Shown: positions 24,001-30,000 of the stretch, one piece after another
Numbering within the stretch: the stretch's first letter is position 1
How the letters are laid out: every line of letters starts with the position of its first letter
Assembly: GCA_963770895.1 (NCBI GenBank)
Contig: CAVYRF010000002.1
Coordinates: 5,408,001-5,472,000, forward strand
Source of the DNA: an uncultured Acidobacteriota bacterium
GTDB lineage: Bacteria > Acidobacteriota > Thermoanaerobaculia > Multivoradales > UBA5704
DNA: 64,000 bases
Direction of reading: 5' to 3'
Made by a program: the position numbers

Positions 24001-27000
24001 GCGCCGAGACCTGGAACCGCTGATCGGCGTCTTCATCAACAACCTGGTGCTGCGCATCGACGCCGCGGGCGATCCCAGCTTCCGCCAGCTGCTGGCGCGC
24101 GTGCGGCAGGCGGCGCTCGCCGCCTATGCCCACCAGGAGGTGCCGTTCGAAGCGGTGGTGGATGCTTTGGGCGGCCAGCGCGACCTGTCGCGCACGCCGC
24201 TGTTCCAGGTCCTGTTCGTCGAGCAGAGCGCGCCGCTGCGCCGTGCGGCGCTGGCGGATCTGACCGTCGAGCCGCGCGAGATCGACCTGGGCACGGCGCG
24301 CTTCGACCTGGCGCTGGCGGTGGCGCCGGTCGAAGACGGCTGGCTGGGTACCTGGAAGTACAGCACCGACCTGTTCGACGCGCCGACGCCGATGCGCATG
24401 GCGGTTCAGCTGGAAGCCCTGCTGGACGCGGCGGCGGCGCAGCCCGACGTGCCGCTGTCGCGGCTCGCCTGGTTCGCCGCCGGCGAGCGCCACCAGGTGC
24501 TGTCTGGCTGGAACGATACGGCGGTGCGCTACGCCGACGGCGGCGTCTGCCTGCACCAGCTGATCGCGGCGCAGGCGGCGCGCACCCCCGCGGCGATCGC
24601 CGTGTCGGCCCCCGGTGTCGATCTGACCTATGGCGCCCTGGAGCGGCAGGCGGGGCAGCTGGCGCGCCACCTGGGCAGCCTGGGGGTGGCGGCGGAAAGC
24701 CTGGTGGGCGTCGCGGCCGAGCGCTCGGCCGAGATGGTCGTGGGCCTGCTCGCCGTGCTCAAGGCCGGCGCCGCCTACGTCCCCTTCGATCCCGGCTATC
24801 CGGCCGAGCGCCTGCGCTTCATGCTCGACGACGCGCGGGTCGGCGTTCTGCTCACCCAGAGCCACCTGGCCGCGGCGCTGCCGCCGCACGCCGCCCGCGT
24901 GGTGCTGCTCGACGCGCCGTTTTCCGGCGCAGCGGCTGCGCCCGCGGTGGGCGCGGCGTGGGCGCATGCCGACAGTCCGGCGTACGCCATCTACACGTCG
25001 GGCTCGACCGGCAGGCCCAAGGGCGCCGTGGTGACGCATCGCGGGATCGTCAACCGGCTGCTGTGGATGCAGCAGGAGTACGGCCTCGCGGCGGACGACC
25101 GGGTGCTGCAGAAGACGCCATACAGCTTCGACGTGTCGGTGTGGGAGTTTTTCTGGCCGTTGATCGCCGGGGCGCGGCTGGTGATGGCGCCGCCGGGCGC
25201 GCACCAGGACCCGGCCTGGCTGGCGCGCATCGTCCAGGCCCAGGGCATTACCACGCTGCACTTCGTGCCGTCCATGCTGCAGGCGTTCCTGGCCCTGGCC
25301 GGCGAAGACCTGGCGGCGGTGTGCCGCACGGTCCGGCGGGTGATGGCCAGCGGCGAAGCGCTGCCGGCCGAGCTGGCGGAGCGCGCCCTGGCGCGGCTGG
25401 GGGCGCCGCTGCACAACCTGTACGGGCCGACCGAGGCGTCGGTCGACGTCAGCTTCCACGCCTGCCAGAGCGACGGCGGCCGGCGGCCGGTGCCGATCGG
25501 GCGGCCGATCGCCAACCTGTCGCTCTACGTGGTCGACCGTCACGGTGACGCGGTGCCGCCCGGCGTGCCGGGCGAGCTGCTGATCGGCGGCGTCGGGCTG
25601 GCCCGCGGCTACCTCAATCGGCCCGAGCTGACGGCCGCCCGCTTCGTGCCCCATCCCTGGGATGAGCGCGGCGGCGGCAGGCTCTATCGCACCGGCGACC
25701 TGGCGCGCTTCCGCCCCGACGGCGCCATCGAGTTCCTGGGCCGCCTGGACCACCAGGTCAAGGTGCGCGGCGTCCGCATCGAGCTGGGAGAGATCGAAGC
25801 CGCCCTGGTGCGCCACCCGCGGGTGCGCGAAGCCGTGGTGATGCTGCAAAGCGGCGCGCCGAGCGCCGCGCCCAGATCGGCTGGCGCGCCGGGCGCCGTT
25901 GCGCCCAGATCGGCTGGCGCGCCGGGCGCCGTTGCGCCCTGGTCGGCCGGCGCGGGCGAACCGCGCCTGGTCGCCTATCTGACGCTGACCGGCACGGCAA
26001 ACGAGCCAGGCGCCGCGGAGCTGCGGCGCTTCCTGGGCGACAGCTTGCCTGACGCCATGGTGCCGTCGGCGTTTGTGGTGCTGCCGGCGCTGCCGCTGAC
26101 GCCCAGCGGCAAGGTGGATCGGCGCGCGCTGGCGGCTCTGGACGGCGTCGACCTGGCGGCGCCGGCGCGGGAGCGGCCGTGGACGGCGCCGGCTACGGCG
26201 CTCGAACGGCACCTGGCGGGCCTGTGGCAGGAGCTGCTGCGGGTCGAGCGCGTCGGTCGCGACGACAGCTTCTTCGAGCTGGGCGGCGACTCGATTCAGG
26301 GCGCGATGTTCATCAACCGGTTGCAGGCCGACCTGGGCGAAATCCTGTACGTGATGGCGCTGTTCGACGCGCCGACGGTGGCGGGCTTCGCCGCCTTTAT
26401 GGAGCGCGCCTACCCGGTGGCGGCCGCCCGCCTGGGCGCCGCGCCGGCAGGAGCGCCGGTCGAGGTACCCGGCGCTGAAACGGTGTCGCAGCAGGTGGAC
26501 GAGCTCGACGTGGAAGCGGCGCTGGCGGCGGTGCACGCCGCGGCCGTGCGCCGGCTGGGACGCGGGGCGGTGGAGCAGGCGGAGAGGGCCGGTCAGGGGG
26601 CGGCCCGGCGGCGCAACGCGCGGGCGGTGTTCATCCTGGCGCCCTTCCGGTCGGGCACGACGCTCTTGCGGGTGATGCTGGCTGGGCATTCGCGCCTGTT
26701 TGCGCCGCCCGAGCTGGAGCTGCTCGGCTTCGGCACCATGGCGGAGCGCGCCGGCGCCTATGCAGGGCGGAACGCTTTTGCGCTGGAAGGGCTGCTGCGG
26801 GCGGTGATGGAGCTGCGGGACTGCGATGCCGACGCGGCGCGGGCCTGGGTGGCGCAGGGCGAACGCGACGGGCTGACGGTGGCGGACGTGTATCGCCAGC
26901 TGCAGGAGGCCGGCGGCGGACGCCTGCTGGTCGACAAGACGCCCAGCTATGCGCTCGATATCGACACTCTGCGCCGGGCCGAACAGATGTTCGACCAGCC

Positions 27001-30000
27001 GCTGTACGTTCACCTGGTGCGGCACCCGCGGGCGACGATCGACTCGTACGTCGAAGCGCACATGGACCAGGTGTACGACTTCCCGTTCGCGCCCACGGCA
27101 CAGGCGGAGCTGGTCTGGATGCTGTGCCACCGCAACATCCTCGATTTCGTGGCGGAGATGGAGCCGCGGCGCGTGCACCGGCTGCGCTTCGAAGAGCTGG
27201 TCAAGACGCCGCGGCAAGCGATGACGGCGCTGTGCGACTTCGTGGGCGTGCCGTTCGAGGACGCGCTGCTGGCGCCCTACGAGGGGCGCCGCATGGCCGA
27301 CGGCCTGCACGCCGCGTCGCGCATGATGGGCGATCCCAAGTTCCACCAACATCGCGGCATCGCCGCGGAAGTGGCCGACCGCTACAAGCAGGCCGCGGGC
27401 GCGCTGCGGCCCCAAACCTGGCAGCTGGCCGCCCGCTTGGGCTACCAGGTGCCGGCCGGCGCCGGCGTTGCGGCGACCCCTGCCGGCGCGGCTGCTCCCT
27501 CCGAGCCGGCCGCCCTGACCGGCGCAGGTGGCGCGGCTGCTCCCGCCGACGCTGACGCCGTGACCGGTGCAGCCGGCGCGGCGCCCGCTGCCGCCGGCGC
27601 CGGTTCGGTGCTGGTGCCTGTGCCGCGGCAGGCTGGCGCCGTGCTGCCGCTGTCGTATGCGCAGGAACGGCTGTGGTTCCTGGCGCAGCTCGATCCGGCG
27701 AGCCCGGCGTACAACATGCCGGCGACGGTGATGATGGAGGGCGCGCTCAAGGTGGACAGCCTGGCGCGCGCCTTCGACGCGGTGCGGCGCCGCCACGAGG
27801 TGCTGCGCACGACGTTCCCGGCGGTCGCGGGCCTGCCGGTGCTGGCGGTGTCGGAGGACGCTTCGGGGGCGCTGCCGGTGGTGGATTTGGGCGGACTGCC
27901 GGCGGACCGGCGGCGGCCCGAAATGGAGCGGCTGGCGCTGGCCGAGGGGCGGCGGCCGTTCGACCTGGCCGGCGGGCCGCGAGCTGAGGCGAGTGCCGGC
28001 GGGCTACCGCGGTCCGCCGGCCGAGCTGAGGCGAGTGCCGGCGGGCCACCGCGGCCGGCCGGCCTGCTGCGCACGACGGTGATCTCCCTGGGCAGCCATC
28101 TCCACGCGCTGCTCGCGACCATGCACCACATCGTGTCGGACGGCTGGACGATCGGTATTTTGACCCACGAGCTGGCGGTGCACTATCGGGCGTCGGTGCT
28201 GGCGCAGCCGGCGGTGGCGGACCAGCTGCCGGCGCTGCGGTTGCAGTACGCCGACTACGCCGCGTGGCAGCGGCGGTGGCTGGACGACCAGGCCGTGGCG
28301 GGGCACCTGGATTACTGGCGGCGCCGGCTCTCCGGGTGGCTGCCGCCGATGGATTGGCCGACCGACCGGCCGCGCCCGGCCAACCAGACGTCGCGCGGCG
28401 CGCGGGTGTCGCGGACGCTCGCCGCGGCGCCGGCGCAGGCGCTGCGGGAGTGGAGCCGCCAGCAGGGGACGACGCCCTTTCTCACGCTGCTGGCGGCGTG
28501 GAGCGCTCTGTCCTGGCGCTGTACGGCACAGGAGGACCTGCTGTTGGGCATCCCCATCGCCAACCGCAACCGCGTTGAAGTGGAGGGGTTGATCGGGTTC
28601 TTCCTGAACATGGTCGTGGCGCGCACCGACGCGTCCGGCGATCCGACGCTGCGCGAGCTGCTGCGCCGCGCGAGCGACGGTTTTCTCTCCTCGGTGCCGC
28701 ACCAGGAAGTGCCGTTCGAGAAGCTGGTGGAGGCGCTGCACCTGCCGCGCGACCGCAGCCGCACGCCGGTGTTCCAGGCGCAGTTCTCGTTGCAGAACAC
28801 GCCGTCGGCGCCGCTGGCGCTGCCCGGCCTGACGCTGGAGATGGTGGAGATCCACAACCGCACGACCAAGTTCGACTTCACCGTCTTCCTGGTCGATCGC
28901 CCCGACGGTCTGACGACGACGCTGGAATACAACACCGACCTGTTCGACGCCGTCACCATGACGCGCCTGCTGGCGGCGTGGGAGACGCTGCTGGCAGGGG
29001 TTCCCACCGCCGCCGACCGCCGGCTTTCCGACCTGCCGCTGCTGCCTGCTGCCGAGAGGGCACAGCTGCTGGCGCCCTGGCCGCTGGCCGCGACGACCGC
29101 CGCCGCGTTCGGCGCGGCGCCGGCAGCCGTCATGGCGCCGCCGGCTGGCGCGGTGTGCCTGCATGAGCTGTTCGAGCAGCAGGTGCGGCGCCAGCCGCGC
29201 GCCGTCGCGGTGGTGCACGAGCTGGAGGAGCTGACGTACCAGCAGCTCAACCGCCGCGCCAATCAGCTGGCCCGCCGCCTGCGCGCCCTGGGCGTCGGAC
29301 CGGAAACGCCGGTGGGCCTTTGCGTCGAGCGGTCGCCCCGCCTGCTGGTCGGCATCCTGGGCATCCTGAAAGCCGGCGGCGCCTACGTGCCGCTCGATCC
29401 CGCCTACCCGCGCGAGCGCCTGGTCTACACGCTGGCAGACGCGCTGGCGGGAGCCGGTGCGGCGGCGGTGCAGGAAGGCGGCGTGAGAGCGGGCGCATCG
29501 CCGGCGGTGCTGGTGACGGAAGCCGGCGTGGCGGCGCTGATCGGCGACGATCTGCCGTTCGCGTTGACGCGCGTTGACTTCGATCGCGACGGCGCCAGCC
29601 TGGCCGGCGAAGACGGCAGCAATGTTGGCGATGTTGGCGATGTTGGCAATGTTGGCGATGTTGGTGGCGGGGGCCGCCGTGGCGATGGCGGCGGGGGCGG
29701 CGCCGCCGTGCCGGCCAACCTGGCCTATGTGATCTATACGTCGGGCTCGACCGGCCGGCCCAAGGGCGTGCCGGTCACCCATGCCAACGGCGCGCGGCTG
29801 CTCGCCGCGACCGCCCACTGGTTCGGCTTCGGCAGCGGCGACGTGTGGACGCTGTTCCACTCCGCCGCCTTCGACTTCTCGGTGTGGGAGATCTGGGGAG
29901 CGCTCGCGCTGGGGGGCCGGCTGGTGATCGTGCCGCGCCAGGCGACGCTGTCGCCGGCGCTGCTGCTGGAGCTGCTGGCGGGCGAAAAGGTGACGGTGCT

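Follow-up and report, generated by a model that had tools for sequence, protein, structure and literature searches.

A sulfotransferase domain in line with a serine module in a nonribosomal peptide synthetase of an uncultured Acidobacteriota bacterium

We analyzed a stretch of 64,000 nucleotides (the window; G+C ~73%) from the genome of an uncultured Acidobacteriota bacterium of the Thermoanaerobaculia (NCBI GenBank assembly GCA_963770895.1, contig CAVYRF010000002.1, positions 5,408,001 to 5,472,000). One of its nonribosomal peptide synthetase (NRPS) genes, NRPS3, encodes a protein in which a sulfotransferase (ST) domain stands between the carrier (T) domain of a serine module and the following condensation (C) domain. 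By its profile match, structure match and conserved residues, this domain is a real CurM-type sulfotransferase of the kind that uses 3′-phosphoadenosine 5′-phosphosulfate (PAPS), placed in line after the Ser module. The sulfate that it is predicted to add most likely stays in the product, as part of an anionic N-acyl-O-sulfoserine head group; we put the probability of this reading at roughly 0.55. In-line STs in NRPSs and the CurM-type family were known already, and what appears to be new here is the amino acid selected by an adenylation (A) domain within a T-ST-C module.

The serine module of NRPS3 carries a full-length sulfotransferase domain

The NRPS3 frame is unbroken from 22466, where it opens at a TTG, to 34702 on the plus strand (4078 codons). 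Judged from the length of its database copy, P0005 (4064 aa), the protein most likely starts at the ATG at 22508. Pfam identified Condensation, AMP-binding, PP-binding and AMP-binding_C domains together with one Sulfotransfer_3 domain, and the layout given in Table 1 was derived from motif positions and from hidden Markov models (HMMs) built on the window's own domains. The C, A and T core motifs of a canonical elongation module (HHxxxDG, A3-A10 and GGxS) are present in the modules of NRPS3, and the codes of its three A domains follow the canonical patterns for serine, threonine and glycine. A sequence-only reading of this DNA had placed an ST between a T domain and the next C domain at 24540-28200, preceded by an A domain with a Ser code. 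Pfam and the domain parse agree with it on the order, the code is that of Ser, and the coordinates are correct, the interval running through A-T-ST into the next C domain, of which it takes in the first third. All four motifs that it listed (APFRSGTTLLRVMLAGH, DKTPSY, VRHP and GDPKF) are present.

In an HMM scan of the kind proposed in that reading, Sulfotransfer_3 (PF13469) matched NRPS3 residues 1388-1599 with 96.1 bits against a cut-off of 27 (E = 4.6e-27), covering profile positions 2-216 of 216, with PP-binding before it and Condensation after it. Sulfotransfer_1 and Sulfotransfer_5 matched as well, each below its own cut-off. Compared with solved structures, the domain (26591-27490) matched the CurM ST (4gbm_A) over query residues 10-289 (E = 1.5e-71) and the olefin-synthase ST (4gox_A; E = 1.9e-65); the next matches were to human tyrosylprotein sulfotransferase 2, at ~2e-4. 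Its identity to the CurM and olefin-synthase STs is 45-50%.

The ST region was also searched against proteins of 2242-7137 aa (E ≤ 0.001; 1695 candidates scored), and we parsed 120 proteins, namely NRPS3 and 119 others listed by the search, which hold 166 ST domains. In the alignment of the window ST with 4gbm_A, CurM residues Arg39, Thr43, Glu60, Lys133, Ser134 and His62 correspond to Arg1395, Thr1399, Glu1416, Lys1491, Thr1492 and Glu1418 of NRPS3. The first four are reportedly PAPS-binding loop or catalytic positions (McCarthy et al. 2012); the sequence-only reading had allowed for catalytic residues being missing, and all four are in place. Arg, Thr, Glu, Lys and Thr at the first five positions are each kept in 165 of the 166 NRPS-embedded STs, the window's included. 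At the His62 position, both polyketide synthase (PKS) structures (4GBM and 4GOX) have His, and the NRPS-embedded STs have Glu (163 domains), Gln (2) or Asp (1). The window ST thus looks catalytically complete, within a subgroup that differs systematically at one active-site position.

This difference from the characterized enzymes is what would fit an ST that is an inactive relic or only structural, with an ordinary unsulfated lipopeptide as the product. We consider that very improbable. The PAPS-binding and catalytic positions are kept almost throughout the family, and the domain is conserved over its full 300 aa, with 61-69% identity among nine related loci from metagenome-assembled genomes (MAGs) of Thermoanaerobaculia or Acidobacteriota (49% for a tenth). 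In addition, the genome can make PAPS, since a gene for adenosine 5′-phosphosulfate (APS) kinase is present elsewhere in it.

The ST domains mostly follow serine, threonine and tyrosine modules

The domain before the ST is a T domain in 165 of the 166 cases; the domain after it is C in 140 and a thioesterase (TE) in 18, while seven STs end the protein and one is followed by another ST. The A domains ahead of T-ST were codable in 160 of 164 cases, with codes for Ser (95), Thr (31), Tyr (21), Gly (2) and other (11). For A domains of the same 120 proteins that precede T and a domain other than ST, the code was Ser, Thr or Tyr in 57 of 186 codable cases (Ser 15, Thr 41, Tyr 1). The difference between 147/160 and 57/186 gives a Fisher odds ratio of 25.6 with p = 8e-34, which is overstated since the proteins are relatives. 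When mapped on the ST-domain tree, the upstream A code required 26 changes, compared to a mean of 66 (minimum 60) in 200 label shuffles. This indicates that the ST domain and the residue chosen upstream change together.

By its motif, the carrier before an ST is a distinct type. The six commonest motifs there are GGDSI (67), GGNSI (60), GGSSI (14), GGNSL (7), GGHSL (4) and GGSSL (3), and the commonest one before C domains is GGHSL (142). The sequence-only reading had noted a GGDS-type carrier, in agreement with GGDSI at the top of this list. Many of the ST modules occupy internal positions, a long way from any acyl starter, and some proteins have two or three in a row, as in P0003 with Ser-ST, Tyr-ST and Tyr-ST in series.

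We conclude that the ST is predicted to target the amino acid held by the adjacent carrier, whose side-chain hydroxyl would be O-sulfated on-line. Of the two targets suggested earlier, the Ser side chain fits the Ser/Thr/Tyr bias. The other, the hydroxyl of the starter acyl group, was rejected as unlikely because STs follow Ser, Thr and Tyr modules at internal positions that have no acyl starter. More generally, action on a different nucleophile, either such a starter hydroxyl in the manner of CurM or a nitrogen in the manner of SulN, appears improbable to us. CurM-type STs act on beta-hydroxyacyl carriers (PMC11730487), SulN N-sulfonates a carrier-bound tripeptide (PMC11298585), and two STs in our set follow Gly-coded A domains, which have no side-chain hydroxyl on offer. 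The prevalence of Ser, Thr and Tyr codes, many of them in internal modules without an acyl starter, and an ST phylogeny that follows the A code speak against it. The exceptions include the Gly code DILQLGVIWK (P0014, or L013:2-13456), where Gly offers no side-chain hydroxyl, and unassignable codes such as DALVSGCIYK, DLKNVGSDVK and DIWELTADDK. These A domains may be linked to hydroxylated residues or to another kind of sulfation.

Comparison with characterized sulfotransferases of assembly lines

In its Pfam family, full-length match, conserved residues at CurM Arg39, Thr43, Glu60 and Lys133, and position in an assembly line directly after a carrier, the window ST resembles those of the cyanobacterial PKSs CurM and the olefin synthase OLS. 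According to PMC11730487, these belong to acyl carrier protein (ACP)-ST-TE units at a PKS terminus, in which a beta-hydroxyacyl chain is sulfated for decarboxylative elimination. The arrangement in NRPS3 differs: it is A(Ser)-T-ST-C within an NRPS, with an amino acid as the substrate and an ordinary C domain next, and the protein has no ketosynthase, ketoreductase or TE domain. The ST itself has Glu at the position where both structures have His62. By context, the window ST is not a CurM-type ACP-ST-TE off-loading unit.

The idea that an in-line ST is without precedent in NRPSs did not survive. In cyanobacteria, OciA (cyanopeptolin-1138/oscillapeptin E) and DysB (dysinosin) carry in-line STs in NRPS loading modules, and the sulfated glyceric acid is kept in their products (PMC2533009, PMC6520454). 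As in those descriptions, the ST of NRPS3 lies within the NRPS polypeptide after a carrier, and the hydroxylated unit on which it would act stands at the N-terminus of the peptide. The same descriptions set the systems apart: OciA and DysB use glyceric acid supplied by an FkbH-like/GA domain, whereas the window ST receives an amino acid from an A domain and belongs to an elongation-type module, C-A-T-ST-C. Pfam found no FkbH in NRPS3. By context, and by analogy, the window ST would work most like the in-line ST of OciA or DysB.

The sulfazecin enzyme SulN is a separate PAPS-dependent protein that N-sulfonates the amine of diaminopropionate, and the sulfamate then directs beta-lactam closure by the TE (PMC11298585). 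It shares with the present system the sulfonation of an NRPS carrier-bound intermediate before chain release, and it differs in acting in trans and on nitrogen, the window ST being in line. For the mined SulM-like clusters of that paper, one figure legend names "S: sulfotransferase domain" (PMC11298585).

Two cyanobacterial proteins have a stand-alone A-T-ST-C layout, one in Moorena bouillonii PNG5-198 (L012:7727-12205, an open frame of 1493 aa with 44-45% identity in the ST domain) and one at L011:7841-12205. Both have Tyr at the CurM His62 position, and their A codes, IGCNLAASGK in L012 and IIWWLAASGK in L011, are without the amine-binding Asp (Asp235). Since its code has no Asp to bind the alpha-amine, the L012 A domain is probably a hydroxy-acid loader of the cyanobacterial type; the sequences suggest a sulfated hydroxy-acid starter for both proteins. 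In the open-licence PMC and bioRxiv literature, we found no characterized A(Ser/Thr/Tyr)-T-ST-C module and no sulfated Acidobacteriota peptides.

A putative lipopeptide assembly line

The T-C-A(Ser)-T-ST-C opening of NRPS3 is common to the 59 proteins in which the C domain behind the ST falls together with C2 of NRPS3. About half of these have an extra N-terminal adenylate-forming domain; in P0046 (residues 2-564), its best matches are NCBIfam models of fatty-acid--AMP ligase (FAAL), such as NF004509 with E = 3.5e-181, below that model's whole-protein cut-off. Within this family C1 lies behind T0 or behind FAAL-T, and in the C-domain tree it falls in a clade of 57 C domains, every one of which follows a T domain. 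With the cassette being [FAAL]-T-C-A(Ser)-T-ST-C, Ser would be residue 1 of a lipopeptide. Short homologues of about 3100-3300 aa (P0071, P0074, P0080 and P0087) consist of the cassette and one further module, FAAL-T-C-A(Ser)-T-ST-C-A(Gly)-T.

A FAAL gene is absent from the window, and none was found in the 32 kb upstream of NRPS1, which hold genes for a recombinase, an ArgZ-like protein, a DNA ligase and a multicopper oxidase. Five close homologues of FAAL are encoded in the genome, among them a stand-alone open reading frame (ORF) of 647 aa at C2:910125-911906, ~4.5 Mb off. Loading of T0 with a fatty acyl group would probably fall to a fatty acyl-AMP ligase whose gene lies elsewhere in the genome, and C1 would couple the acyl group with the Ser on T1. 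The in-line ST, with PAPS, would O-sulfate the side-chain hydroxyl of the carrier-bound Ser, either before or after the acylation, and C2 would hand the acyl-Ser(OSO3–) to Thr.

The terminal carrier T3 is not followed by a TE, so the chain must pass to another synthetase. In the simplest order, NRPS3 would be the initiating synthetase, followed by NRPS2 and then NRPS1, giving a lipopeptide of ~12 predicted residues. NRPS2 ends in an epimerization (E) domain and would deliver a D-residue to NRPS1. The NRPS1 frame begins 18.3 kb upstream of the window and measures 8522 aa from stop to stop, or 8516 aa from the first start codon; in the tree, its N-terminal C domain shares a long separate branch with 10 further N-terminal C domains. 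The stretch between NRPS2 and NRPS3 holds two MacB/FtsX-type permease genes.

Fate of the sulfate

Three observations favor an O-sulfoserine that is retained. First, the family includes 21 Tyr-coded ST modules, among them three of the 18 T-ST-TE modules, and Tyr modules cannot lose the sulfate by beta-elimination. Second, the C domains after the ST look ordinary, which leans toward retention without settling it. Third, the in-line STs of OciA and DysB go with products that keep the sulfate (PMC2533009, PMC6520454).

The competing explanation is that Ser is sulfated only to create a leaving group, so that the final peptide has no sulfate. Beta-elimination would then give N-acyl-dehydroalanine, attack by the acyl amide oxygen an oxazoline, and attack by nitrogen an aziridine or a beta-lactam. 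Sulfate-driven aziridine closure by stand-alone sulfotransferases is known. If the sulfate of Ser is eliminated on-line, the natural partner would be a C domain of the dehydrating or beta-lactam-forming kind ("modAA", NocB C5). The C domains after the ST therefore bear on both explanations.

We compared 380 C domains in a tree and, column by column, 136 C domains after an ST with 208 after a T domain; neither comparison included reference modAA sequences or C subtypes. Those after an ST cluster (41 changes compared to a mean of 110.8 under shuffling), yet they lie among the ordinary C domains that follow T, and with no reference subtypes in the tree they form no deep separate clade. The sister group of the C2 clade (59 members) is the next C domain within this family of proteins, and the clustering reflects shared descent of whole modules. 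HHxxxDG is kept in all C domains after an ST. One column distinguishes the clade of C2, and none separates the 136 from the 208. A specialized C domain after the ST was dropped as a candidate on these counts. C2 and the other C domains after an ST thus group with ordinary ones, and no additional residue is conserved in them. Before HH they have Met; the nocardicin C5 domain of NocB reportedly has a third His there.

Loss of the sulfate is in our view possible and distinctly less probable than retention. The ST is 45-50% identical to those of CurM and the olefin synthase, whose sulfate is eliminated by the next domain (PMC11730487). The codes are Ser or Thr, whose beta-sulfates can eliminate, in 126 of the 160 codable ST-linked modules; the cassette always sets the sulfated Ser beside the acyl amide, a geometry that would suit oxazoline closure; and the 36-member subclade of C domains after an ST that holds C2 has a longer stem (0.24) than its neighbors. 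Against it stand the 21 Tyr-coded modules, which cannot eliminate, the C domains with Met and no third His before HH and no conserved extra catalytic residue, and the in-line STs of NRPSs described so far, which keep the sulfate.

Several points weigh against retention as part of an acylated head group. CurM and olefin-synthase STs, the nearest solved relatives, install the sulfate as a leaving group (PMC11730487). An O-sulfoserine on a thioester would be chemically primed for beta-elimination. Where CurM has His62, Glu is found both here and in 163 of 166 relatives, and the chemistry may therefore not be that of the characterized enzymes. Two STs follow Gly-coded A domains and 11 follow unassignable codes. 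NRPS1 has a second Ser module with the identical code and without an ST, which would make the sulfation position-specific. FAAL is unlinked to NRPS3 (~4.5 Mb), and the order of the synthetases is deduced from terminal domains only.

The 18 modules that end in T-ST-TE have the CurM-like order; their A codes are Ser (4), Thr (6), Tyr (3) and other (5), and the proteins include P0004, P0011, P0016, P0018, P0023-P0025 and P0029. After Ser or Thr, by analogy with CurM, decarboxylative elimination in such a module would give a C-terminal enamide.

Distribution and significance of the family

At least 400 NRPSs have this ST domain, so the singular new system proposed in the sequence-only reading gives way to a family. 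The names given are mostly Thermoanaerobaculia or Acidobacteriota (metagenomes), with single source names from Pyrinomonadaceae, Herpetosiphonaceae and Pseudoalteromonas among the listed proteins, and PF13469 occurs with NRPS domains in 120/120 listed proteins. Among 401 evenly sampled Acidobacteriota genomes, five (this one included) match the ST at E ≤ 1e-30, and the two other genomes of the window's family have three and five copies. The architecture is thus rare across genomes, as proposed, but not within this lineage. Scanning species-representative genomes with a pattern gave 12 loci, 10 in Thermoanaerobaculia/Acidobacteriota MAGs and two in cyanobacteria including Moorena bouillonii PNG5-198. 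The genome studied here has two further NRPS-embedded STs (G000:C1:1828601 and G000:C2:241487) in ORFs of 7603 and 11003 aa; one of the A codes ahead of them is Ser and the other is not assignable. It also has three ST-family matches in ORFs of 621-672 aa. DNA of the window was matched in soil metagenomes in partial shares, which is no evidence on habitat or expression.

To our knowledge, there are few sulfated nonribosomal peptides, and as a rule separate enzymes add the sulfate. Here the ST is a standard component of the module, linked to Ser, Thr or Tyr, with up to three per protein, and the family probably makes sulfated peptides. If the STs are active, a large class of mono- and poly-sulfated (lipo)peptides lies hidden in the genomes of this uncultured soil Acidobacteriota lineage, and A-T-ST would offer a portable unit with which sulfation could be engineered into peptides. 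Should the sulfate leave instead, the family would represent a new assembly-line way to dehydro or cyclized residues, the equivalent in NRPSs of CurM chemistry, employed hundreds of times by uncultured Thermoanaerobaculia. We only tentatively entertain the corresponding idea that Ser-ST is a new route to reactive residues at the lipid-peptide junction, such as dehydroalanine, oxazoline, aziridine or a beta-lactam type ring.

Features of the window, repeats and neighboring genes

Table 1. Synthetase and permease genes of the window and the domains of NRPS3 (positions in the window; residues of NRPS3)
Feature	Positions	Strand	Residues	Description
NRPS1, 3′ part	1..7295	+		Presumed last synthetase; seven modules and TE
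NRPS2	9058..17445	+		Presumed second synthetase; C-A-T-C-A(DLTKIGEVGK, Asn-like)-T-E
MacB-like permease gene	17364..19838	+		True start uncertain
MacB/FtsX-type permease gene	19858..22335	-		Divergent from NRPS3
NRPS3	22508..34702	+		4064 aa from ATG; T0-C-A(Ser)-T-ST-C-A(Thr)-T-C-A(Gly)-T, without TE
T0	22712..22945	+	83-160	N-terminal carrier, FFALGGDSL; presumed acyl acceptor for FAAL in trans; homologues have FAAL fused ahead of this T
C1	23135..24493	+	224-676	Condensation domain after T0; lipo-initiation type by position
A1	24581..26131	+	706-1222	Code DVWHMSLVDK (Ser); Pfam, domain parse, code extraction
T1	26186..26419	+	1241-1318	Carrier feeding ST, FFELGGDSI; motifs, domain parse
ST	26591..27490	+	1376-1675	PAPS-type sulfotransferase domain, Sulfotransfer_3, CurM-ST-like; 300 aa; Pfam, structure match
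C2	27623..29062	+	1720-2199	Condensation domain after ST, HHIVSDG intact; holds 93-nt in-frame repeat 27971-28063
A2	29189..30889	+	2242-2808	Code DFWNIGMVHK (Thr); code extraction
T2	30944..31177	+	2827-2904	Carrier; domain parse
C3	31298..32725	+	2945-3420	Condensation domain; domain parse
A3	32888..34381	+	3475-3972	Code DILQLGVVWK (Gly); code extraction
T3	34421..34654	+	3986-4063	Terminal carrier; domain parse

The repeat in C2 is GC-rich and recurs in frame at ~31643-31735 and ~12875-12960, at the same spot of three C domains. It lies between "PFDLAxGP" and "LLR", ~25 aa before HHxxxDG, and consists of one to three tandem units of ~14 aa with a peptide like RAEASAGGPPRSAG. The copies are 94-100% identical in DNA, compared to 61-82% for the flanking C-domain DNA. 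At least 17 further loci were found in the genome, all in ORFs of 2802-11247 aa, and HHxxxDG follows just downstream in 16/17; the pattern was found in 0/354 C domains of 119 homologous proteins from other genomes. The repeat could originate from gene conversion or from a site-specific mini-element. In NRPS1, a ~100-aa insert with much Ala, Gly and Ser precedes HHTVADG in the last C domain (~3100-3400; residues ~7124-7231), and in the first module, upstream of the window, an additional partial C-like stretch separates C from A (residues 470-687).

Directly after NRPS3, at 34858-41723, lie genes for two large RHS-repeat proteins, the first with a C39 peptidase and the second with Big_2; the latter gene has three 300-nt tandem repeats at 40037-40802. 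An M14 carboxypeptidase-like ORF follows at 42838-45966. The region ~50455-61023 holds a sulfatase gene (+) and then, on the minus strand, a sulfur-assimilation set (tetrapyrrole methylase, sirohaem synthase, PAPS/APS reductase, sulfite reductase, ABC permease, ATPase and an NMT1/SsuA-like binding protein). Lying at least 16 kb past NRPS3, behind the RHS-repeat and peptidase genes, the sulfatase and sulfur-assimilation genes were rejected as cluster members and are regarded as neighbors only.

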